This document shows positions 3,150 to 61,675 of a stretch of 64,000 nt of DNA, in pieces. The stretch is from the NCBI GenBank assembly GCA_964493895.1, contig CAZBPY010000003.1, forward strand, positions 15,176 through 79,175, written 5' to 3'. Every line of letters starts with the position of its first letter. The stretch's first letter is position 1. The notes beneath the pieces were generated by a model. It saw only the letters and a program-made list of their open reading frames with translations, searched no databases and had not been told where the DNA came from. The position numbers were made by a program, and so were the translations under genes. Source of the stretch: an uncultured Candidatus Saccharibacteria bacterium (GTDB lineage Bacteria > Patescibacteriota > Saccharimonadia > Saccharimonadales > JAGQNJ01).

Positions 3150-3467
3150 TTACCGCCGCGGCCAAATAACCGCCGCGGTAATTGACCCTAGAGGAATCGG
3201 GCCAAAGTCTCGGCTGTCGGTACTCATTGGCCGGTTGTCGCCCGAAACAATAAAACCGTCACCGTCTGTGTCGACAATTCGTTTGATTTTCTCTAGCCCG
3301 TGGTGACTAAATACCACGATCTGACCGGGACGATAATGCCGCCGGGGCACAGCCAAAATCAGACGTCCCGGCCTTAAGGTCGGCTGCATGCTGTCGCCAA
3401 CCACTCGGCGGACTAAAAACCTAGGCCGCCTTTTTGGTTTCGTGGAAGATCTTGGCGATCTCATCAA
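3150..3467 (-). CDS. sodX: Small S26 family (signal peptidase I-like) peptidase, candidate NiSOD maturation protease SodX
   Basis: GDSMQPTL (box B) and GDNRxxSxDSR (box E) motifs. There is no N-terminal TM segment and the product is only about 105 aa. It lies immediately downstream of sodN. The annotated start overlaps sodN by 47 nt, so the true start is probably internal. Confidence 0.6.
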   Translation of the reverse strand: MMRSPRSSTKPKRRPRFLVRRVVGDSMQPTLRPGRLILAVPRRHYRPGQIVVFSHHGLEKIKRIVDTDGDGFIVSGDNRPMSTDSRDFGPIPLGSITAAVIWPRR

Positions 3468-3804
3468 TCATGTCCAGCAATTTCTGACCCTCAGCCGGAT
3501 CAACAGACTTCTTGCAGTCACCGGCTTGCTTGGTAGCTTGCCAAAACTTATCATGCAAATCTGGATACTTTTCTAAATGCGGCGGCTTGAAATAATCTGT
3601 CCATAGTACCCATAAGTGATGCTTTACCAGTTCAGCTCGCTGTTCTTTGATAAAAATAGCCCGGATTTTATCTTCCTGGTGAAGGTCGGAACTGTATTTT
3701 TTCATAATCTCATGAACCGATTCAGCTTCGATACGAGCCTGAGCCGGATCATATACTCCGCATGGTAAATCACAATGTGCATAAACTGGCTTGATCAAAC
3801 TCAT
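3421..3804 (-). CDS. sodN: Nickel-containing superoxide dismutase (NiSOD) precursor
   Basis: 9-aa propeptide MSLIKPVYA followed by the Ni-hook HCDLPCGVYDPAQARIEAESV. Similarity to Streptomyces SodN runs over the full length. A GGAGGG SD sits 5 nt upstream. Confidence 0.9.
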   Translation of the reverse strand: MSLIKPVYAHCDLPCGVYDPAQARIEAESVHEIMKKYSSDLHQEDKIRAIFIKEQRAELVKHHLWVLWTDYFKPPHLEKYPDLHDKFWQATKQAGDCKKSVDPAEGQKLLDMIDEIAKIFHETKKAA

Positions 3805-3833: not shown

Positions 3834-4556
3834 TCACTGGAGATATTTTATAGCCAGATCACGAGCCAATAGTCCGGAAATCGGATTAGCAAACCCTGCC
3901 AGGTCAGCCGTCAATGGACGTTTGTCCTGACTCAAAGCTTGTTGCAGATGATTGGGACTGAGTCCTACCATTCGCAAGGCCTCACCAGCTGCAAATCGGT
4001 ACAAAAGAGTCGGCTTGCCGTCCGACTTAGCATAGATTGACGGCCAGACCAATCTATCAAATTTATCGTGTATCATCGAAGGGTCCGGACGGTCACGAAC
4101 TACTTTTCGAGCCCGGTGTTGAGCAGCCATAACACCATGCAATACGGTTGTCGTGGCTGCTAAATCAACAGCCGGTCCTATATCTGTACGACAGGCGTGT
4201 TGCAGAATTCTAGGGAACTTCTTAGATACTGACACGATTGTTGCTGTCATATCATATTTACTACGTCGGTGCCAGGTGGACATAGGCGGATGAATATCAA
4301 CTGCAGGAGAAGTGTCAAACGACAGCTTTGTATGAGCAACATCAATGGCATCGTCAGACATGGCGTATCGGTCCTTTAGGTGACGAACTGCCTCCCCAGA
4401 TAGAGCAGCCGAGTACACAACATCGAGGAAGCCCTCGACTTCCTCGATACCATTCCTAATTTGGGGGTTGTCGGGGAATTGAATTACTTCGCCGCATTTA
4501 TCTCCGGGTCCATTAGTCATAATTACTATTATATCACACTTGTCAATCTTTTTCAA
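3834..4556 (-). CDS. Hypothetical protein (240 aa), no confident family assignment
   Basis: Long ORF with coding-like composition between sodN and trmD. The N-terminal GPGDKCGEV is only weakly reminiscent of UDG family motifs. Confidence 0.5.
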   Translation of the reverse strand: MKKIDKCDIIVIMTNGPGDKCGEVIQFPDNPQIRNGIEEVEGFLDVVYSAALSGEAVRHLKDRYAMSDDAIDVAHTKLSFDTSPAVDIHPPMSTWHRRSKYDMTATIVSVSKKFPRILQHACRTDIGPAVDLAATTTVLHGVMAAQHRARKVVRDRPDPSMIHDKFDRLVWPSIYAKSDGKPTLLYRFAAGEALRMVGLSPNHLQQALSQDKRPLTADLAGFANPISGLLARDLAIKYLQ

Positions 4557-5212: not shown

Positions 5213-5294
5213 AACATTATTATACAGGGGTAGAATTAAGATGCCTAGTTAGCGAATATATCGCTGTGAGGCCGTCTGGGTTAATATTAATACA

Positions 5295-6860
5295 ATGCGT
5301 AGCTTAAAAATGGCGGTAGGTTTTTTTATTGCTGCAGTGATATTATTTGCTCCAGCATTGGGTTCGGTGTCTTCGGCTCAAGCTTCGTCTGATTATGAAG
5401 ACAGTGAGTGTTATTTGGGCAACGTTCCTGCTTTTGATGCACGCGACCAGATTCGACCAGGCAGCTATGCTATCTATGCTAAATTGGCTCGCCGTGGACA
5501 ATTAGCACCTGTGACTCTTTATATTGAGGACAATGGAGCTTCTGCTTGCCAGCTAGTCGGTTCAATTGAAGCAAATGGCGAGACCTGGCAGAGGGTAGGC
5601 ACTTGGGATTCAATCGATGATGCGCCGGTTCGGTTTCAACTGAGTTCGCCGGCTTTTACTTATGAACTTGACGCTAACCGCCCATCGATAATGTTACTTC
5701 CGCTGACTAGTCCGCCCTGCCAGCCGGTTGTTAATTGTGAACTTGAGTACGAGGGTCAGCCTGCATACCTTGTGCCGACTAGTACTTTACTAAGCGAAAA
5801 TCAATTGCGGGTACAACAAGTCAAAGATCTACAATCAGATCGTTTGGTGCAGGTTGGGTATTTTTCTGATGGTCAATTACTTTACACCACGCCTAAGTTA
5901 GAGCCGTTTGACCTGCGGTATGTCCGTGGCGGTGATCACGACCTATCCAGGGTGCTGCAATTTGAGTCCGGGCAGAGGGTGGTTTTACCTTCCACTGCCA
6001 GGATTAGCTTTGCCAGAGATTTTCAAAATCTGTTATTCCGCCTTTTTCACAGCAATCGCATCGGCTTGCAAATTCTAGCCACCTTAATCATCTTGTCTCT
6101 AGTGGCCATGATTACTCTGGCCGCTATTCGCACCCTACATCGGCGACGTATTTGGAAGCTTAGTCATGGTTTATTGAGGCCGTCGCCTTCTAAACTGCAG
6201 CCACAGCAACAGCTGCCGGCCAATTATGTTCCGCCGGCCCATAAATTCATAGCTGAGGATTCGGCCCTGATAAAGCGAGTTAAACAGTTCATGCCTTATG
6301 TTTTTGCGGCGATTTGCATCGTTGTGGCCATTGGCGTAATTGACACTTATGTGGGTCAGCTATTTAAGGTTGATGGGCCAAGCATGGAAAACACTCTTCA
6401 GACCGATGATTTGATCTATGTTAACCGACTACCAAAAACCTGGGCCACTATCAATGGCGGTGAATTCGTGCCTAAACGCGGGCAAGTTGTCGTCTTCCAA
6501 AAGGCCCATAGCGAACTGTTTATTCAGGAAAGTCAGGGCGAAGAAAATACATATGTTGTCAAGCGAGTTTTGGGACTGCCTGGTGAGCGAGTACTGATCA
6601 AAAACGGTAAAATCACTATTTTTAACCGCGATCATCCTGGCGGCTTCAACCCTGATGATAACAGTGACTGGCAGGCAACATATATCGTTGACCCGAACGA
6701 GAATATTGACTTAACCCTAAATCAAAGCGAGATCTTTGTCACTGGCGACAATCGTCCAGAATCACTAGACTCTCGAACCAACGGACCGATTAATATCAAT
6801 GAGCTGATTGGAGTGGCCGAAGCCCGCCTATTGCCGTTTAGCAAACGCCAAACGCTTTAG
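5295..6860 (+). CDS. lepB: Signal peptidase I (S26A) with a long N-terminal extracytoplasmic extension
   Basis: C-terminal domain carries GPSMENTL (catalytic Ser), KRVLGLPGERV and GDNRPESLDSR boxes. N-terminal hydrophobic segment, a domain of about 230 aa, two TM helices, then the catalytic domain. Confidence 0.75.
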   Translation: MRSLKMAVGFFIAAVILFAPALGSVSSAQASSDYEDSECYLGNVPAFDARDQIRPGSYAIYAKLARRGQLAPVTLYIEDNGASACQLVGSIEANGETWQRVGTWDSIDDAPVRFQLSSPAFTYELDANRPSIMLLPLTSPPCQPVVNCELEYEGQPAYLVPTSTLLSENQLRVQQVKDLQSDRLVQVGYFSDGQLLYTTPKLEPFDLRYVRGGDHDLSRVLQFESGQRVVLPSTARISFARDFQNLLFRLFHSNRIGLQILATLIILSLVAMITLAAIRTLHRRRIWKLSHGLLRPSPSKLQPQQQLPANYVPPAHKFIAEDSALIKRVKQFMPYVFAAICIVVAIGVIDTYVGQLFKVDGPSMENTLQTDDLIYVNRLPKTWATINGGEFVPKRGQVVVFQKAHSELFIQESQGEENTYVVKRVLGLPGERVLIKNGKITIFNRDHPGGFNPDDNSDWQATYIVDPNENIDLTLNQSEIFVTGDNRPESLDSRTNGPININELIGVAEARLLPFSKRQTL

Positions 6861-7690
6861 TAGGCCTGTATGGTCATTTCGCTGACTTCAACCGGAGCTT
6901 CAAAGGGGTATTCATTAGGATAATCTGATGCAAACGCCCAGAATTCCAGGGATATAAAACTCTTTGCACTATCCTCAAACTCAATATCGTTACAGACATC
7001 GGTGAAGTTTGTGCTATTTAATATATGTGTATTATAACTTGAGTCCTCCGATTTCCGGTTTTTATCTGGACTGGCAACAATCCGTACAGAAGATGCCTTG
7101 TTCGGTTCTGTGACTCGGGCACGCGCGCAGACTTTAAATCTCTTCCCCCAATTCGCTTCAACAAATTTAGGTACTTGAATATATTCTTTTGTAAATTCAG
7201 GCGTCATGATATTGCCAACAACTGGGTCTGAGTGCCATTTAGGACCAGTCTCCCATACGCTTTCAGGTCCGGCAGTAATTGTTACAACATCACTCAGGAC
7301 ATGGTCACGTGAGCTGAGATTTCCGTCATACACTCTGAGCTGGTTGGCAATTAATTTATTGCCAGCTCGCTTTTGGCCTGGCAACGGCTTCCCAGCATAA
7401 TTATAGAGCGCATTCGCGAGCTGGGCTCTTAATAATGGATCGCTTGGTTTAAACGTCCCGTTTTGAAAGCCATTCATCATACCTATGTCAGAGGAAGTCG
7501 CCCAGGTTATGGCATCTTTGGCCCAGGCTGGCGTGTCGGTGAATCTAGCCGTCGTAACCGATTCCGCCTTGGATGAATTGCCTCTCACCCGATTGAATAC
7601 GTAGAATCCGACTGCCACGATCAAAACTATTACTATTAGAATAATAAAGGCTTCTACGTGTGCGAAGCCGCGCTGTCCAATTTTTTTCAT
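6857..7690 (-). CDS. Type IV prepilin-like N-terminus protein with an SLH (S-layer homology) domain
   Basis: N-terminus MKKIGQRG|FAHVEAFIILIVIVLIV matches the G/F...E(+5) prepilin signature. Residues about 49-96 (FTDTPAWAKDAITWATSSDIGMMNGFQNGTFKPSDPLLRAQLANALYNY) match the SLH consensus. Confidence 0.6.
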   Translation of the reverse strand: MKKIGQRGFAHVEAFIILIVIVLIVAVGFYVFNRVRGNSSKAESVTTARFTDTPAWAKDAITWATSSDIGMMNGFQNGTFKPSDPLLRAQLANALYNYAGKPLPGQKRAGNKLIANQLRVYDGNLSSRDHVLSDVVTITAGPESVWETGPKWHSDPVVGNIMTPEFTKEYIQVPKFVEANWGKRFKVCARARVTEPNKASSVRIVASPDKNRKSEDSSYNTHILNSTNFTDVCNDIEFEDSAKSFISLEFWAFASDYPNEYPFEAPVEVSEMTIQAY

Positions 7691-7775
7691 TTTTTAACCT
7701 TTTGATTTTATGTATTCTGGTCAAACTATACCATAATACGGCCCGCTTACCTAGAGCTTGTCCACAGCTCTAAAA

Positions 7776-8264
7776 CTATATATCAAGGTCGTCGAGATCA
7801 GCCAGTTCGCGGCGGGTTCGGTCAAAGTTGGATTGGCTGTCATCGGCTTCATCTTGTTCGTCAGCAAAGACCTGTACATCCGAATGGTCGGCGACGCTTT
7901 CGCTGGCATTCTCCGCACTGTCGTCTGCATCAATCGGATGGTCATCTTGTTTAGGTTTTTCTTCAGCTGCTGGCTGGGGCTTATCAGATTTTTCAGGTTT
8001 AGGCGGCTTCTCCCCGCCAACATCAACAATTTTTAGATTATAACGAGCATCATTCTTTGTCCCCAGAGCCCGCAGTAAAGTTCTCAACGCCTGGGCCCCG
8101 GCACCGCGCTTGCCAATAACTCGTCCAAGATCTTCGGGATTAACGGTCAGTTCTAGTAATACACCTTTTTCATCTATAGTACGCTTGATAGACACATCAT
8201 CGGGGTTGCCGACAATAGTTTTTACTACATATTCAATAAATTGTTCGTCAATACTGGCGCTCAT
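7776..8264 (-). CDS. KH-domain RNA-binding protein (KhpA/YlqC-like) with an acidic C-terminal tail
   Basis: VIGKRGAGAQALRTL KH GXXG loop. Position after rpsP is conserved. SD caGGAGGa 6 nt upstream. Confidence 0.75.
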   Translation of the reverse strand: MSASIDEQFIEYVVKTIVGNPDDVSIKRTIDEKGVLLELTVNPEDLGRVIGKRGAGAQALRTLLRALGTKNDARYNLKIVDVGGEKPPKPEKSDKPQPAAEEKPKQDDHPIDADDSAENASESVADHSDVQVFADEQDEADDSQSNFDRTRRELADLDDLDI

Positions 8265-8329: not shown

Positions 8330-8806
8330 TTAAGACTTTTTGTCTTCTTTGGGAGCGCCTTCGGCAGCAGGCTTGTCGGTGGCCTCAGCTGATTCTGGTT
8401 CAGCTTTTGCGCCTTCGGCATCGGTAGACTGTTCAACATCTTCAGCGGGTGGTTCATCGGTGGCCGCCGGTGTCTCAGGCTCGGCCGGCTCGTCAGGGCG
8501 ATTCTTGCGCAACTTCTCGGGGTTGCGGATTTTACGCTTTAGAGGCTCGCTTAACTGAACCCAGGCGGGCAGCTTAACCCCTTCTTTCTTGAATAATCGG
8601 GCCACTCGATCGGATGGTTGAGCACCATTTTTAAGATAAAAATCGGCCTTCTCGCTGTCGATCGTTAAAACTTTGGTGTGCGGATCAAAATTTCCCAAAC
8701 GGTAAACAATCCGACCGCTGGTCGGCGTCAGACGGGATTCTTGGACCACCACACGGTATTGAGCATGGCCTTTGCGGCCAGTTCGTTGCAAACGGATAGC
8801 TAACAT
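8330..8806 (-). CDS. rpsP: 30S ribosomal protein S16 with a C-terminal low-complexity extension
   Basis: MLAIRLQRTGRKGHAQYRVVV N-terminus typical of bS16. Confidence 0.85.
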   Translation of the reverse strand: MLAIRLQRTGRKGHAQYRVVVQESRLTPTSGRIVYRLGNFDPHTKVLTIDSEKADFYLKNGAQPSDRVARLFKKEGVKLPAWVQLSEPLKRKIRNPEKLRKNRPDEPAEPETPAATDEPPAEDVEQSTDAEGAKAEPESAEATDKPAAEGAPKEDKKS

Positions 8807-8854: not shown

Positions 8855-9547
8855 TTATTGATATTTTTTCAAGGCTTCGGTGGCGGCTTCTTGCTGACCT
8901 ATTTGCTTGGACGGCCCTTGTCCGCTTCCCATTAGTTTGTCATTGATATAAACGCCAACTGTGAATAATTTGTCGTGGTCCGGACCCTCTTCCTCAATAA
9001 CTTTATAGACTGGTGTAGCGCTATCAATCGCTTGAGCCTTTTCCTGAAGATGCGACTTAGCATCCATCCAGGAACCAGATTCCAATATGCCATCGAATGT
9101 CGGCAGCAAACTCTTAGCAATAAAGTCGCGGGCGGCTTCATAGCCCTGATCCAGGTACAGCGCCCCAACCACAGCTTCGTAAGTATTAGCCAAAATTTGG
9201 GCCCGGGCCCGCTCGGAGCCGCGCTTTTCACCGCGGCTTAACCGCAACAAAGGTTCAAATTCTGATCGTCTGGCTGCCTCAGAAATGCTCTCGGTACGCA
9301 CTAAACTGCTGCGCCAGTTAGTTAATATTCCTTCCGGTTCAGAATAGTTGGAATACAGAAACTCAGTTACGACTAGCTCTAAAACGGCGTCGCCCAGAAA
9401 CTCCAGTCGCTCGTTGTGTTCGGTGACAGACTTACGGTGCTCATTAACATAACTGCGATGCGTAAAAGCCAGTAACAACAGTGCTGGATCTTTAAAGGTC
9501 GTACCTAATTGTTTCTTGGCAAACTCAACGTATGGTGCTATGTCCAT
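8855..9547 (-). CDS. rnc: Ribonuclease III
   Basis: ERLEFLGDAVLEL RNase III signature plus C-terminal dsRBD. Confidence 0.9.
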   Translation of the reverse strand: MDIAPYVEFAKKQLGTTFKDPALLLLAFTHRSYVNEHRKSVTEHNERLEFLGDAVLELVVTEFLYSNYSEPEGILTNWRSSLVRTESISEAARRSEFEPLLRLSRGEKRGSERARAQILANTYEAVVGALYLDQGYEAARDFIAKSLLPTFDGILESGSWMDAKSHLQEKAQAIDSATPVYKVIEEEGPDHDKLFTVGVYINDKLMGSGQGPSKQIGQQEAATEALKKYQ

Positions 9548-10060
9548 CTATTTCTTAAGCCCTATTTTCTTCTGTCTAATTTTCTTGAGTCCCAGCAAAA
9601 TAATCTTGCCAATATCATCATACTCTATTTTATCAAGCGCTTCTCTAGCTGGGAACCATTTTATATCATTCATCCAGTCTTCTTTGACTAGTTTCTGGTC
9701 AGCCGGATCAGCGTGAACCAGATAAATGTCCTGGGTGATCAACACTAAGCTGTTTTGCCGGCGATACTGGAAATTGATTTTCCCCAGCCAATCGTACATG
9801 GTGACCTTTTTCAGGCCGGTTTCTTCTTTAACTTCGCGTTCGGCGGTCTGTTTGGGTGTTTCTCCTTCTTCCATGTGACCTTTGGGAATTGTCCAGCGGT
9901 CACGAGCATCCTGAATTAGCAAGATGTCTATCTCGTCAGTACCCGGCCGGCGTCGAAAAATGACACCACCGGCGGTTGGTTCACGCAGGACCTCTTTGAT
10001 AGCCGGGCTGCGGCGCTGAGCAAACTTGCGAAACCGGTCAATTGGCTTTGGTCTTTTCAT
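9548..10060 (-). CDS. NUDIX hydrolase
   Basis: Perfect Nudix box [23 protein letters not shown]. Confidence 0.8.
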
Positions 10061-21148: not shown

Positions 21149-21706
21149 TTAAAACTTAACGTCAGTCGGTTTTTCAATATTGGCTTGTTCAGCCTCGTCA
21201 ACTTCAAAAAATTCACGAATTTTAAAGCCCATCATGCCAGCAAAAACACTGGTGGGAAAGACCTGGATTTTAGTGTTTAGGTCGCGGACAGAACCGTTAT
21301 AGAATCGCCGCGCAGCCTGGATTTTATCTTCAGTGTCAACCAGTTCGGCCTGCAGTTCTTTGAAATTGTCGCTAGCCTTCAGATCTGGATAGTTCTCGGC
21401 CACGGCAAACAAACTTTTCAAAGCTTGCTCGAATTGGTTATCAGCCTTGGCGGTTTCCGCCGGCCCTTGAGCTTTGGTTATGGCACTACGAGCCTTGGTG
21501 ACTTCTTCAAAAACTCCCTTTTCATGCTTGGCATAACCCTTAACGGTGTTGACTAAATTTGGAATTAAATCACCTCGGCGCTTTAACTGAACTGTAATGT
21601 CGCTCCAGGCCTCATCGACTCGAATTTTGGCTCGAATCAAGCCGTTATAAATCAGCACCAGTATCAGCACTAATGCAGCTGCGGCGATGCCAATGTATAT
21701 CCACAT
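21149..21706 (-). CDS. lemA: LemA family protein
   Basis: N-terminal TM segment plus the LemA core. Start moved to MWIYIG (ATG 21706, SD aGGGGAG) because the longer ORF would overlap the tRNA-Leu gene. Confidence 0.8.
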   Translation of the reverse strand: MWIYIGIAAAALVLILVLIYNGLIRAKIRVDEAWSDITVQLKRRGDLIPNLVNTVKGYAKHEKGVFEEVTKARSAITKAQGPAETAKADNQFEQALKSLFAVAENYPDLKASDNFKELQAELVDTEDKIQAARRFYNGSVRDLNTKIQVFPTSVFAGMMGFKIREFFEVDEAEQANIEKPTDVKF

Positions 21707-21736
21707 AATTTTCTCCCCTGTTAAAACTGTAGTTTC

Positions 21737-21745
21737 ATTATAGCA
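21737..21745 (-). promoter_or_regulatory. Extended -10 TGCTATAAT for lemA-htpX
   Basis: About 30 nt upstream of the lemA ATG, between tRNA-Leu and lemA. Confidence 0.4.
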
Positions 21746-21770
21746 AAATCGCCGGCTGAAAAACAGAAGT

Positions 21771-21857
21771 TGGTGCGCGGGGCGGGACTCGAACCCGCAC
21801 GCCCAGTTGGGCATTTGATTTTAAGTCAAACTTGGCTACCAGTTACAACACCCGCGC
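21771..21857 (-). tRNA. tRNA-Leu (anticodon TAA), long variable arm
   Basis: 87 nt. Acceptor gcgcggg/cccgcgc, anticodon loop cuUAAaa, encoded CCA. Confidence 0.85.
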
Positions 21858-22349
21858 TCTCTGTAATCTTAACGCAACTTTCTTATTTTTGCCACGGTGT
21901 GTTGGTTGCAGACTGTGACAATTGGGACATAATATTCTTAGGTTTACTAACCTATTGTCTGTGGGATCACCATTGATGTGATCTAATTCCACTGGGATTC
22001 TACCGTCTATACTTCTTTCTGCCCATCCACAAATTTCACATTTTGGATTTTTTAATCCATCTTTGTAGAGACGGAGCTTTAGGGTATGGCTTTGGACTTT
22101 GCTGCCTTTTCGAAGCCACTTTTTTGTAGGTGTAATAGGAAGATTAAATTTATACAATCCGCCCTTGTTCCAGCCTCGACCGGTAAAATGATGGGTTGAG
22201 AGTTTTAGTTCAGCAACTCGTTCGGAAACTTGTTTATAGTTGCCGCCTGCCGGAATAAGGCCAATCTTTTTTATTACGGCTCGGTAACTAGTGCAAGTAG
22301 CCACCGCTTTCACTAATTGCTCGTCCGTCCAGCTGCGTTGCTTCGGCAT
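21843..22349 (-). CDS. HNH endonuclease (homing-endonuclease-like) with an N-terminal HTH-like region
   Basis: ELDHINGDPTDNRLVNLRILCPNCHS HNH/zinc motif. The 3' end overlaps the 5' end of tRNA-Leu(TAA) by about 15 nt. Confidence 0.75.
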   Translation of the reverse strand: MPKQRSWTDEQLVKAVATCTSYRAVIKKIGLIPAGGNYKQVSERVAELKLSTHHFTGRGWNKGGLYKFNLPITPTKKWLRKGSKVQSHTLKLRLYKDGLKNPKCEICGWAERSIDGRIPVELDHINGDPTDNRLVNLRILCPNCHSLQPTHRGKNKKVALRLQRARVL

Positions 22350-28846: not shown

Positions 28847-29236
28847 TTACCTCTCCTCTAAAATAGTCGTCACTAAATAGTTTACCAGCCCGATGATAAT
28901 TCCAGCAATAAGAGCCGATCCAAAACTCTCAACATTTAAGTCGCCGTATAGATGGCTGGCTAGTAAGACCATAAGGGCATTGATGACAATCATAAACAGC
29001 CCCAGACTAAACAACAATGCCGGCAAGGCCAACAGAACAATGATCGGCTTTATGACGGTGTTAATTAAGGCCAGAACCAGACCTGCCACCACAATCACGC
29101 CCAAGCGATTATCATAAGTAATTCGATCAGGCCCAAGTATGCTAGCAGCTATCCATAGACCAAGGCCGCAGACAAACCAGCGGACTACAAATCGAGCAAT
29201 TGGGTTATTCATAATGCTTATTCTATTGTAGGCCAT
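28847..29236 (-). CDS. YvlD / phage-holin-4_2-like small membrane protein
   Basis: Four TM helices of about 125 aa, with the VINALMVLLAS-type pattern of this family. Confidence 0.5.
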   Translation of the reverse strand: MAYNRISIMNNPIARFVVRWFVCGLGLWIAASILGPDRITYDNRLGVIVVAGLVLALINTVIKPIIVLLALPALLFSLGLFMIVINALMVLLASHLYGDLNVESFGSALIAGIIIGLVNYLVTTILEER

Positions 29237-58213: not shown

Positions 58214-58672
58214 TTGCTTGTTGAAGTAAAGGGGAATATAGTTGTTAATATGAATTGGGGTAAGTTTCAAGGGGAACACTCCCGTAATGCGGGGGGAGCA
58301 ATTGCAGATACAGACTTTGATGTGGTGTCCATCGGGAGAGCTATGTTGGATCATAACAATGGCTGTGGTGTCCAGGAGGGGCTGGCCTGTGCTGACTGTT
58401 GGAAATCAGCTAAAATAGTTACTGCATCACTAAGAGAAAGAGGTTATCTTGGCGACAGCCCCGGCCCATTCAGTAAAATTAGATGGCAGGTGCAATCAGA
58501 TATGAGTGGACCGTGGCACTTTGATTTAGAGGAAGATCACCCCTATGTTGTGACCTCCGTAGAAGCACTGGGGCAATTTGAAAATGCCTGGTCAGAAGAG
58601 CCAGTAGAGTTCAGTAAAGTTGCAGTGTCAGCTTTAATTCGAGCTCAACGTCTAGAAAGAATTACTCCGTAG
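58214..58672 (+). CDS. Hypothetical protein (152 aa) containing three Cys, divergent from metG
   Basis: ORF only. Purine-rich and compositionally unlike its neighbours. Could instead be part of a structured leader. Confidence 0.3.
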   Translation: MLVEVKGNIVVNMNWGKFQGEHSRNAGGAIADTDFDVVSIGRAMLDHNNGCGVQEGLACADCWKSAKIVTASLRERGYLGDSPGPFSKIRWQVQSDMSGPWHFDLEEDHPYVVTSVEALGQFENAWSEEPVEFSKVAVSALIRAQRLERITP

Positions 58673-59966
58673 GGTCGATGTAGTCCTTGCACAGCCGTTC
58701 AAAAATAGCATTGGTCCAACCAAAACCAGTTTGCGAAGGATAAAGCCCTTTTTGCGGTGGCTTGTCGGGGTTGACGACGTTGTATTTTTCCAGGAAAATT
58801 CCGTGTTTGTTAAACCAATCCAGATTGATGCGCAGCCATTTCATGGCGATGCGGCGGGCATCTTTGTGATAGCCATATCTTTCCAGGCCCTGAATAACGA
58901 TCCATTCCAAGGGCGCCCAACCATTAGGATGCGCCCACTGGGTTGGCAAACTGCCCGGCACCAAGTGACTGACTGGCTGATTGTCGGTGGTGCTGAGCCC
59001 GCCGCGGTTCTCGAACCGGCCCAAAGCGCCAATCAGTTTCCGAGCCCGGGCGTCATCGACCATGCCGGCCCACAGCGGGAAGAATCCAGCCAGTGAACTG
59101 ATGTTACCGCGGCGCTCTTTAACAAAATTGTAATCATAGTAAAAGCCTTTGGCATTACTCCACATCAGCTCGTCCATCATCTGTTTTCGGGTATGAGCCC
59201 GGTTCAGCCAAACGCCGGCCTCGTTGTCTCGGCCTAAAATTTTGGCGGCTCGGGCAAAGTCCGATTCGTACCGATATAACAGGGAGTTCAAATCGACAGG
59301 TAAATAATTCAGTGCTCGGCGGTTAAAACGCGGCGTCATATCCCAACCGCTCTCGGCTTCAGCCAGGTCGTTAAGCATGTTGATGTCGTAATAGCGGCTC
59401 AGGCCCATATAAACCGCTCGCCAGTTTGGCTTGGCCGTTCCCAGCCAAACAGTCGAATACTCATCATGAGCCACAGCGATGTGCTCTTCCAGCCATTTTC
59501 GATCCTTCTTATAGGTGTCATAAACCTGGAAAATGAAAGTCGTCAGAAACGGCGGCTGGGAGCGCCCCATCAGATAAGTTCGCGAAGCGTTGGGAATAAT
59601 CCGAAACCGCTTTTGCATGCTGATCAAATTTTCTAAAATGCCTTCGACTAGTTGTTGGTGCTCGGCGTCCAACAATCCTTGGACCATAAAAAAGCTGTCC
59701 CAATAATACATTTCGTTGAAATCAAACGGGTGACCCTCTTCATAAGCTGGCACCAAATAGGCGTAGGGCAGGCCAATCAAAGTCTCGTCATCTTTTGGAT
59801 GATAGCGCTCTAACTTCTTCCAATAGGCAGCGATGTACTCTCGAGCCTTGGCCACATCCTGCGGCTGCAGGTCCCGGGTGCGTCCGGCCGGCAGAACTGA
59901 TTTTGCAACGTCTTTTATCTTGCCAAGCATAAGCCTTAGTGTATGCTGGCCCACCTCGGTGGTCAA
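58662..59966 (-). CDS. Trehalase (glycoside hydrolase family 37), cytoplasmic
   Basis: GH37 signatures EMYYWDSFF and QWAHPNGWAPLEW, plus C-terminal GFGWTNA. Confidence 0.8.
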   Translation of the reverse strand: MTTEVGQHTLRLMLGKIKDVAKSVLPAGRTRDLQPQDVAKAREYIAAYWKKLERYHPKDDETLIGLPYAYLVPAYEEGHPFDFNEMYYWDSFFMVQGLLDAEHQQLVEGILENLISMQKRFRIIPNASRTYLMGRSQPPFLTTFIFQVYDTYKKDRKWLEEHIAVAHDEYSTVWLGTAKPNWRAVYMGLSRYYDINMLNDLAEAESGWDMTPRFNRRALNYLPVDLNSLLYRYESDFARAAKILGRDNEAGVWLNRAHTRKQMMDELMWSNAKGFYYDYNFVKERRGNISSLAGFFPLWAGMVDDARARKLIGALGRFENRGGLSTTDNQPVSHLVPGSLPTQWAHPNGWAPLEWIVIQGLERYGYHKDARRIAMKWLRINLDWFNKHGIFLEKYNVVNPDKPPQKGLYPSQTGFGWTNAIFERLCKDYIDPTE

Positions 59967-60601: not shown

Positions 60602-61675
60602 CTACTCAGCGATTACGCCGATTTTGAATTGTTCTAGTTGACTAGCGGCGCTGGAGCTGTGCGGTGTGCCGCTGCCAATTGATCGGCCGTCAGCATCTTG
60701 GCGTTGGGTGAAGTGAGTGGTTGCATCTATGCCGCAGGCGCGCAAGATCTCAGATCCGCCAGGGTGGCTGGCAATAAAATCAGTGATGTCATAGACTGAA
60801 CCACGAATTATTGTCCAGCAATCCTCGGAGTTGTCATGAGTAGCTACTTCAGCAACCGTAAAAACCTCTCCCTCGATCGTCTCTGTCTCGGTCTCTGGAG
60901 CATCCTCGAATTCCTCAATCACAGTGCTGGTTTCCTCTACCGGTTGTTCGTCCTTATTGAGCTGGCCGTAGACTAACCAACCACCGCCGACCAATACGGC
61001 CATCACGACGATAATAGCTATTACTTTCTTCATTAATTTACCCTCCTTGTGGGCTTTAATTGCTTCGACTATTTGAATATACCCTATGCACACGGCTAAG
61101 ACCAAGGCATACCAAAGCCAAAGCGTTCTGTACCAACCTTGCTGTAGATTGGCACCCAATGCCAAAGCATGAGCTACAATCGCAAACATGGCAATGATTT
61201 GAGCGTACTCAATAATCGGCCACCAATTTTTTTGCTCGAACCAGCGCTTAGTCTCGAAGGCCAGAAAGGTCAGGAAAGCCAACGTCCCGAAAGTGGCTGC
61301 CCACTGCAAACTTATTCCAACATATTCCAGATAGCTCCCGGGCGGAAAACCAAGCCCCGCCAGCCAAAGACCGGCAATTAACAGAGACGGGTGCAGCAAA
61401 ATAAAAATCAACGCCGCCCAGCCAGTAACCTTAAAGTAATGTTTGAGCGGTTCCTTTTCTACCCCAGCCGCTCGCCTAATGGCTCCGACGACGTAATGAG
61501 CCCACATCAAGCTGAACGCCAACAGACCAAAGAGAGGGAAGAGCCGAAAATCAGTAAAAGTGGCTAATTCAAAACCTTCATAAACCTGCCCCCAGGCTAT
61601 GACGGCCAAAAGGCAGACCACCACACTTAAGGCCCAGGCGCTGGCGATAACCCCCCTTTGTTTCATACGAAGCAT
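60602..61675 (-). CDS. Polytopic membrane protein (His-rich six-TM heme-binding-like N-domain) fused to a C-terminal cytochrome b5-like domain
   Basis: C-terminus SEDCWTIIRGSVYDITDFIASHPGG matches the cytochrome b5 HPGG heme-binding motif. N-terminal six TM helices have conserved His. Confidence 0.6.
   Translation of the reverse strand: MLRMKQRGVIASAWALSVVVCLLAVIAWGQVYEGFELATFTDFRLFPLFGLLAFSLMWAHYVVGAIRRAAGVEKEPLKHYFKVTGWAALIFILLHPSLLIAGLWLAGLGFPPGSYLEYVGISLQWAATFGTLAFLTFLAFETKRWFEQKNWWPIIEYAQIIAMFAIVAHALALGANLQQGWYRTLWLWYALVLAVCIGYIQIVEAIKAHKEGKLMKKVIAIIVVMAVLVGGGWLVYGQLNKDEQPVEETSTVIEEFEDAPETETETIEGEVFTVAEVATHDNSEDCWTIIRGSVYDITDFIASHPGGSEILRACGIDATTHFTQRQDADGRSIGSGTPHSSSAASQLEQFKIGVIAE

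Follow-up and report, generated by a model that had tools for sequence, protein, structure and literature searches.

How a surface protein carrying an SLH module comes to begin like a type IV prepilin is the question raised by a gene at positions 6857-7690 of a 64 kb stretch of DNA (contig CAZBPY010000003.1; the whole stretch analyzed, hereafter the window). The window is assigned to a Saccharimonadales bacterium because its TrmD matches about 70 loci from Saccharibacteria/Saccharimonadales metagenome-assembled genomes (MAGs), the best at 86% identity. A preliminary description of the gene had proposed either a pseudopilin tethered to the wall or S-layer or a non-canonical route of export for an S-layer-associated protein. 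The analysis reported here indicates that the open reading frame (ORF), referred to below as the SLH ORF, encodes a cell-envelope protein that is rare and lineage-specific and belongs to a Saccharimonadales (Saccharibacteria/TM7) bacterium. On balance the protein is probably inserted through Sec and either stays anchored in the membrane or is cleaved by signal peptidase I (SPase I), with its single SLH module on a wall polymer and its beta-domain displayed in the wall zone. The features of the gene and its product are as follows.

6857..7690, minus strand: SLH envelope protein (P0001), complete ORF with an ATG start, 277 aa plus stop, from the ORF list.
7698..7701, minus strand: Shine-Dalgarno-like (SD-like) AAGG, 7 nt 5' of the ATG of the SLH ORF, read from the sequence.
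7667..7690, minus strand: basic leader ending in Gly, MKKIGQRG (residues 1-8); prepilin peptidase may cut after G8, or the segment may simply serve as n-region to a Sec signal or anchor.
7595..7666, minus strand: hydrophobic transmembrane (TM) helix, residues 9-32, FAHVEAFIILIVIVLIVAVGFYVF, with His at +3 and Glu at +5; helix 9-36 in AlphaFold2 (AF2) at a predicted local distance difference test (pLDDT) of about 70-74.
7415..7543, minus strand: single SLH module, residues 50-92.
6860..7378, minus strand: C-terminal domain, residues 105-277, 40% identical to residues 240-423 of the homologue P0003 and predicted all-beta.

The SLH module, which the preliminary description had placed at about residues 49-96, was borne out by profile searches. 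Pfam PF00395 matches residues 50-92 in one copy, scoring 29.4 bits where the gathering score is 20.8 (E 7.8e-7), and a custom hidden Markov model built from the SLH matches collected here finds one domain, residues 48-105, at 96 bits. The core motif, L-L-R-A-Q at residues 86-90, has Leu in place of Thr and retains Arg, Ala and Gln, making it an LRAQ variant of TRAE/TRAQ. L-T-R-A-Q is found in all three SLH repeats of P0003, and the third of these repeats is the closest to the window module (34 of 54 residues identical). SLH binding in Bacillus anthracis requires a polymer pyruvylated by CsaB (PMC5817068); the Pfam scan of window ORFs turned up no pyruvyl transferase.

The nearest relative of the protein bears directly on its likely route of export. 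An exhaustive HMMER search of 1.84 billion (1.84e9) representative proteins returned 17,613 matches, one alone of which reached beyond the SLH module. This match, P0003 (423 aa, E 4e-66), has three SLH repeats and the same C-terminal domain, and its N-terminus is of the ordinary Sec type, KSKLLLVALAFAVVGAGYVFVSSAS/IEG (longer extract MMAKRKSNKSKKLWGSKATSKSKLLLVALAFAVVGAGYVFVSSAS/IEG; here and below a slash marks a real or candidate cleavage point). The P0003 gene lies 5' of ftsA on a contig syntenic with the window at 43-50 kb (FtsA 52%, Obg 56% identity), and this synteny, together with the identities of FtsA and Obg, points to a distant Saccharibacterium as its host. Between the two lineages YceG is 42% and LysM-CHAP 40% identical, while the C-terminal domains are 40% identical. 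A second high-scoring segment pair aligns the TM segment and linker of the window protein with the signal and the start of the first SLH repeat of P0003. We infer, as the simplest history, that two SLH repeats were lost from a three-SLH, Sec-exported ancestor resembling P0003. Word-indexed homologue searches recovered only the query itself when begun with the SLH ORF, and only proteins sharing SLH when begun with P0003; no orthologue of the SLH ORF occurs in 70 related loci. The NCBI collection contains an identical protein, encoded on a contig of 174,801 bp. Two SLH proteins of the clade with Sec-type signals, listed by related locus (L numbers), are the following.

L001:1133-2404, strand not given: P0003, with a Sec signal ending in GAGYVFVSSAS.
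L008:17696-19432, minus strand: SLH protein of 578 aa with three C-terminal SLH repeats and a Sec-type signal, ...AFVLVFAVLGGGYYAYRSFAS (...KKLVAFVLVFAVLGGGYYAYRSFAS/TEQ).

The h-region of the SLH ORF ends in G-F-Y-V-F, like the ends of the Sec signals of P0003 (GAGYVFV) and of the L008 protein (GGGYYAY), and possible SPase I sites follow at VRG/N and SKA/E. A stereotyped clade Sec signal ending in G-G-G-Y-Y-A-Y-R-S-F-A/(S or T) is shared by the L008 protein, by the product of L008:19463-20485 (minus strand) and, in the form GAGYVFVSSAS, by P0003. An ending of the form G-aromatic-x-x-aromatic is also present on a pilin-like protein of locus L041 and on the GFAH proteins, both described below.

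The C-terminal domain has no Pfam, NCBIfam or meaningful PDB sequence match, and it defines a two-member family composed of the SLH ORF and P0003. Blocks conserved between the two are GKRFKVCA, RVTE and PFEAP.EV. Residues C188 and C233 are invariant in P0003, and this suggests an extracytoplasmic disulfide. Residues 168-277 are consistently all-beta in both AF2 models, each of low confidence (pLDDT 47.8 and 52.7). A Foldseek search of PDB with the pLDDT 52.7 model gave matches that are weak but mutually consistent, to the beta-jelly-roll carbohydrate-binding modules CBM22, CBM16, CBM4, CBM6 and CBM29 and to the receptor-binding domains of CDTb and iota-Ib (best E 2e-3, TM 0.35-0.46), with no match at E<=1e-3. 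As a lead, the domain is possibly a CBM-like, carbohydrate-binding beta-jelly-roll.

The N-terminus is what gave rise to the pilin comparison. By the definition of Berry and Pelicic (PMC4471445), a class III signal opens with a hydrophilic leader, 6-26 aa long and with Gly as its last residue, and continues with a stretch of about 21 hydrophobic residues broken by Glu5. In MKKIGQRG/FAHVEAFIILIVIVLIVAVGFYVF, an eight-residue basic leader runs to Gly, with Phe at +1 and Glu at +5, and 19 hydrophobic residues follow Glu13 from Ala14 onward, so that the pattern is present as MKKIGQRG/FAHVE plus 19 hydrophobic residues. The Gly/Phe cleavage context and the Glu at +5 claimed in the preliminary description are therefore there in the sequence and fit the class III pattern.

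In profile searches for a pilin N-terminal domain, support for this likeness did not reach the cutoffs. Pfam N_methyl (PF07963) gave no match to the SLH ORF or to its N-terminus at E<=10. The archaellin/type IV pilin N-terminal domain model TIGR02537 scored 14.1 bits with the full protein and 18.4 bits with the N-terminal fragment (E 0.0011; cutoff 20), and PRK10506 (prepilin-peptidase-dependent protein) scored 11.9 and 15.6 bits, respectively. These two were the best of 18,950 NCBIfam models for the isolated N-terminus, and both fell below their cutoffs. A positive control from a related Saccharimonadales MAG, with canonical GFSIVE (SG/FSIVEAVLIVAAIG...), matches PRK10574, PRK10506, GspH and Pfam N_methyl, whereas the nine remaining clade N-termini of the calibration set matched no pilin model. 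The control protein is the following.

L041:18181-18924, minus strand: pilin-like protein of 247 aa, MKGQRKQSG/FSIVEAVLIVAAIGIIGAAGWVVYQ, with a canonical pilin-type N-terminus and no pil locus visible around it.

The remainder of the protein does not resemble a pilin either. The alpha1 helix of a pilin is about 50 residues long and packs its C-terminal half on a beta-meander head, and this alpha1C/beta-meander head defines pilins and modular pilins (PMC4471445, PMC8179133). No such head is predicted in the SLH ORF: the low-confidence AF2 model has its N-terminal helix at residues 9-36 and the SLH helices from residue 55 on, the SLH profile begins at residue 50, and the 16 residues between TM helix and SLH leave no space for a head. 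Type IV pilus genes are absent from the Pfam-scanned ORFs of the window, where FtsA gave a PilM_2 match that was sub-threshold, and a GxGD[..]K motif scan found no A24 peptidase in the window or the related loci. Since both the curated pilin profiles and the pilin fold failed, the SLH ORF is not filed as a pilin, and the pseudopilin tethered to the wall or S-layer is left without a pilin head, an N_methyl match or pil genes in the window. Of the pairing proposed in the preliminary description, the SLH module is real and the class III pattern fits, whereas the profile scores lie under their cutoffs and the protein is neither pilin nor pseudopilin.

The motif itself could have arisen by chance. 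When a loosened form of the pattern was run as a control over 1.36 Mb of sequence from Saccharibacteria, an acidic residue was no commoner at +5 than at +2 to +8, and the class III-like motif is not clearly above chance. The class III pattern occurs in one of 263 fetched SLH proteins, the SLH ORF itself; the pairing of a pilin-like leader with SLH, seen as a short motif in a single sequence, is rare and has no second independent case. The G/FxxxE likeness may be coincidental, or may at most allow the prepilin peptidase, PilD, to trim eight residues.

A part of the motif does recur. A leader made up of a basic residue, R-G-F-A-H and then I, V or P, followed by a TM helix, occurs five times in about 1.36 Mb, the window protein included, against a rough composition-based expectation of about 0.1. 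The four other occurrences are on these proteins.

L066:14104-14889 and L015:16765-17592, strands not given: an orthologous pair of M23 peptidases with the GFAH leader, N-terminal R-G-F-A-H.
L051:8080-8829, strand not given: envelope protein of an unrelated family with an R-G-F-A-H leader.
L027:9298-9717, strand not given: envelope protein of an unrelated family, with GVAH in place of GFAH.

GFAHI is kept in both M23 orthologues, the TM segments of which otherwise diverge. Glu at +5 is found in the window protein only, the other four leaders having F, I or L at that position, and in the window motif GFAH is thus to be read as a habit of the clade and not as a hallmark of pilins. Gly-1 is the sole residue critical for prepilin processing and Glu5 is dispensable there (PMC4471445), and because Gly-1 alone is critical, the RG-FAH leader is possibly a recognition site for PilD. 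Searches for further relatives yielded little: a profile of the five GFAH N-termini run against 5.8e9 proteins gave 73 candidates but a single match, the L066 protein in truncated form, and metagenome scans with the M23-GFAH alignment and with the window/L066 alignment gave 458 and 600 pattern stretches, none of them confirmed by tblastn.

The gene lies in the same direction as rpsP and the KH gene and right after them, as the preliminary description had correctly stated, all three being on the minus strand. The KH gene and the SLH ORF are separated by 85 bp, in which a simple scan found no promoter-like or terminator-like site on the minus strand. In the closest relatives the KH gene adjoins trmD (in L002, for example, KH at 9461-9961 and trmD at 10001), and because KH directly precedes trmD there, positions 5213-7775 are taken to be a lineage-specific insert. 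Across 70 Saccharibacteria loci this KH-trmD slot proved hypervariable, being occupied from lineage to lineage by small genes that are unrelated. An origin of the insert from foreign DNA was ruled out, its GC content being 0.44-0.49 against 0.45-0.51 in the flanks, and an Rfam scan of the region returned nothing. Exact look-ups aimed at extending the contig gave no record for P0001 or the ATPase and, for KsgA, a Logan contig of 3.7 kb; sample SRR9016294 contains the organism. The locus is arranged as follows.

8330-8806, minus strand: rpsP (ORF list/Pfam).
7776-8264, minus strand: KH gene (ORF list/Pfam).
5213..7775, no strand: lineage-specific insert flanked by trmD and the KH gene, holding the SLH ORF and a convergent LepB paralogue.
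5295-6860, plus strand: LepB (Peptidase_S26) paralogue of 521 aa, convergent with the SLH ORF and overlapping its 3' end by 4 bp.

The LepB paralogue has its own cleavable-looking signal (…SVSSAQA/SS), some 300 aa that make up a unique domain, additional TM segments and then Peptidase_S26 at residues 336-512. Its match in relatives, at 31% identity, covers the S26 part alone and lies elsewhere in the genome (L016). The co-insertion and the 4-bp overlap suggested a dedicated cassette of LepB and its substrate; this was not adopted, as the P0003 locus has no adjacent LepB.

Several lines favor the Sec-based reading: P0003 and the L008 protein use Sec-type N-termini and have h-regions like that of the SLH ORF, the TM segment and linker align with the signal of P0003 and the start of its first SLH repeat, a pilin head, an N_methyl match and pil genes in the window are all missing, the RG-FAH leader occurs without Glu at +5 on M23 peptidases and other envelope proteins, and the loose-pattern control shows no enrichment of an acidic residue at +5. 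The N-terminal hydrophobic segment would direct export through Sec in an N-in/C-out orientation, after which it would be retained as a membrane anchor or be removed by SPase I at VRG/N or SKA/E. The single SLH module would then dock on a wall polymer, by the mode of action familiar from SLH biology; with one repeat only, homo-oligomerisation would probably be needed. The C-terminal domain, with its conserved Cys pair and weakly indicated all-beta fold, would be presented in the wall zone, where it would perhaps bind glycans. Several observations weigh against this account. Both Pfam and the custom model find one SLH repeat, and in B. anthracis wall binding needs two or three (PMC5817068); confidence in the AF2 models is low (pLDDT 47.8 and 52.7). 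The candidate SPase I sites come after two Arg residues, which is atypical of a cleaved Sec signal, and the hydrophobic tract is 24 residues long if counted from F9. The N-terminus has all the textbook features of class III signals (PMC4471445), and 2 of 11 clade N-termini, those of the SLH ORF and the pilin-like L041 protein, match pilin-type NCBIfam models, all at sub-threshold scores. Type IV pili and PilD are reported to be widespread in the candidate phyla radiation (CPR) and in Saccharibacteria (PMC6744442, PMC11623550, PMC11659515), and cleavage after G8 is for that reason biochemically plausible.

These last points lead to the rival with the most in its favor, in which the protein is a genuine non-pilin substrate of PilD, cut after Gly8 to give a mature protein that starts at Phe9, with its helix in the membrane and its SLH module docked to the wall. 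As part of the same explanation, the RG/FAH leader of the clade would mark a few PilD-processed non-pilin envelope proteins, comparable to the Sulfolobus bindosome. The complete class III pattern, the reported spread of PilD in CPR and the dispensability of Glu5 beside a critical Gly-1 (PMC4471445) speak for it, as do best NCBIfam matches that are class III families and are not returned by control N-termini, a leader found on unrelated families far above expectation, and the constancy of GFAHI between M23 orthologues with diverged TM segments. Against this stand profile matches that are all below cutoff, with none from N_methyl, four other GFAH leaders that lack Glu5 and match no pilin model, a homologue with a Sec-type signal, and two metagenome scans that confirmed no relatives of the leader. 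We regard processing by PilD as a tentative possibility, and a rather unlikely one. Its extension to the whole order, namely that members of the Saccharimonadales may possess a class III signal of variant form (a basic leader and R-G/F-A-H) by which a few non-pilin envelope proteins would be routed via the prepilin peptidase, is more doubtful still; the set might comprise the SLH protein, which alone kept Glu5, and the M23 peptidoglycan hydrolases, in a route of surface display in a monoderm CPR bacterium that would depend on PilD and not on a pilus.

The two remaining alternatives are given less credence. That the protein is a decaying remnant, a truncated three-SLH gene in a hypervariable slot that has not retained its function, would account for the loss of two of three SLH repeats relative to P0003, for a lineage-specific insert at a hypervariable site and for the absence of orthologues from 70 related loci, with one homologue in 1.84e9 representative proteins. 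It is nevertheless improbable in view of the intact frame and SD-like site, the RAQ motif kept in the SLH module, and a C-terminal domain the blocks of which are conserved and which has diverged from P0003 to much the same degree as YceG and LysM-CHAP. That the protein is instead a modular minor pilin or pseudopilin, which would be part of a type IV filament and fasten that filament to the wall or S-layer through SLH, is very improbable. Modular pilins with grafted modules are widespread, CPR included (PMC8179133), and the class III-like pattern with Glu5 would suit one; however, modular pilins keep a complete pilin module (PMC8179133), where the SLH ORF has 16 residues between helix and SLH and no alpha1C/beta-meander. 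N_methyl is silent, no pil locus contains or adjoins the gene in the window, and the supplements of the modular-pilin survey that were searched contain no SLH term (PMC8179133).

Several other features of the window deserve mention. The ORF at 3834-4556 (minus strand, 240 aa), between sodN and trmD, has no Pfam match, and tblastn finds no counterpart to it in any of the 70 related loci; it points to a further lineage-specific slot adjoining trmD. Beside trmD in many relatives a nickel superoxide dismutase gene is conserved, here at 3421-3804 (minus strand); this enzyme, a membrane protein whose C-terminal domain is cytochrome b5-like (60602-61675, minus strand) and a trehalase-family glycoside hydrolase (58662-59966, minus strand) are noteworthy for a reduced CPR genome. 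The region at 21.7-26.8 kb contains a cluster of seven tRNA genes, an HNH endonuclease gene and a DUF1428 gene. Within it, tRNA-Leu(taa) at 21771-21857 (minus strand) overlaps the start of the LemA ORF (21149-21814) and the end of the HNH-endonuclease ORF (21843-22349), and because of the overlap with the tRNA the N-terminal extension of LemA is probably spurious. Between the genes for an SBP_bac_5 solute-binding protein and an aminopeptidase P, positions 28847-29236 (minus strand) encode a small protein that has four TM segments and matches Phage_holin_4_2 (84 bits).

Saccharibacteria spend their lives attached to other bacteria, an attachment driven by their surface proteins and type IV pili. 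If the SLH ORF product is docked through its SLH module and binds glycan, it adds one rare item to the poorly known surface proteome of Saccharibacteria. If it proves true that RG/FAH leaders are processed by PilD on non-pilins, prepilin-peptidase-dependent display of the archaeal type would extend to CPR and the annotation of such N-termini would change.

Among known systems, the protein can be compared with the SLH wall proteins of monoderms (PF00395), such as B. anthracis Sap and EA1 and the clostridial SLH anchoring proteins. It shares with them an SLH module with an R-A-Q core followed by a non-SLH domain, and its nearest relative, P0003, has the classic combination of a Sec signal and three SLH repeats. 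It departs from them in having one repeat where B. anthracis needs two or three, and in an N-terminus that joins a class III-like motif to a long hydrophobic anchor in place of a clear cleavable Sec signal; its host is a Saccharibacterium, and no pyruvyl transferase such as CsaB is among the window ORFs scanned. Single-SLH proteins that act as trimers include Thermus SlpA, OmpM of Negativicutes and cyanobacterial porins of the SomA/B type, in which a three-pronged SLH unit is formed through oligomerisation. The SLH ORF product likewise has one SLH per chain; these trimers, however, are diderm outer-membrane beta-barrel or S-layer proteins, whereas it is a small monoderm protein consisting of a TM helix, SLH and a domain that is beta-sandwich-like in prediction.

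With type IV and modular pilins (IPR012902; Raynaud et al. 2021, PMC8179133) it has in common a short basic leader to Gly, Phe at +1, Glu at +5, a hydrophobic helix and a downstream non-pilin module, but it lacks the pilin globular module, an N_methyl match and nearby pil genes, and its His at +3 is atypical. The archaeal non-pilin class III proteins, exemplified by the sugar-binding proteins of the Sulfolobus bindosome (PMC4471445), are similar conceptually, being surface proteins that carry a prepilin-type signal and form no filament, and the best match of the window N-terminus was to TIGR02537. Unlike the bindosome proteins, the SLH ORF is bacterial and scores 18.4 bits against a cutoff of 20.

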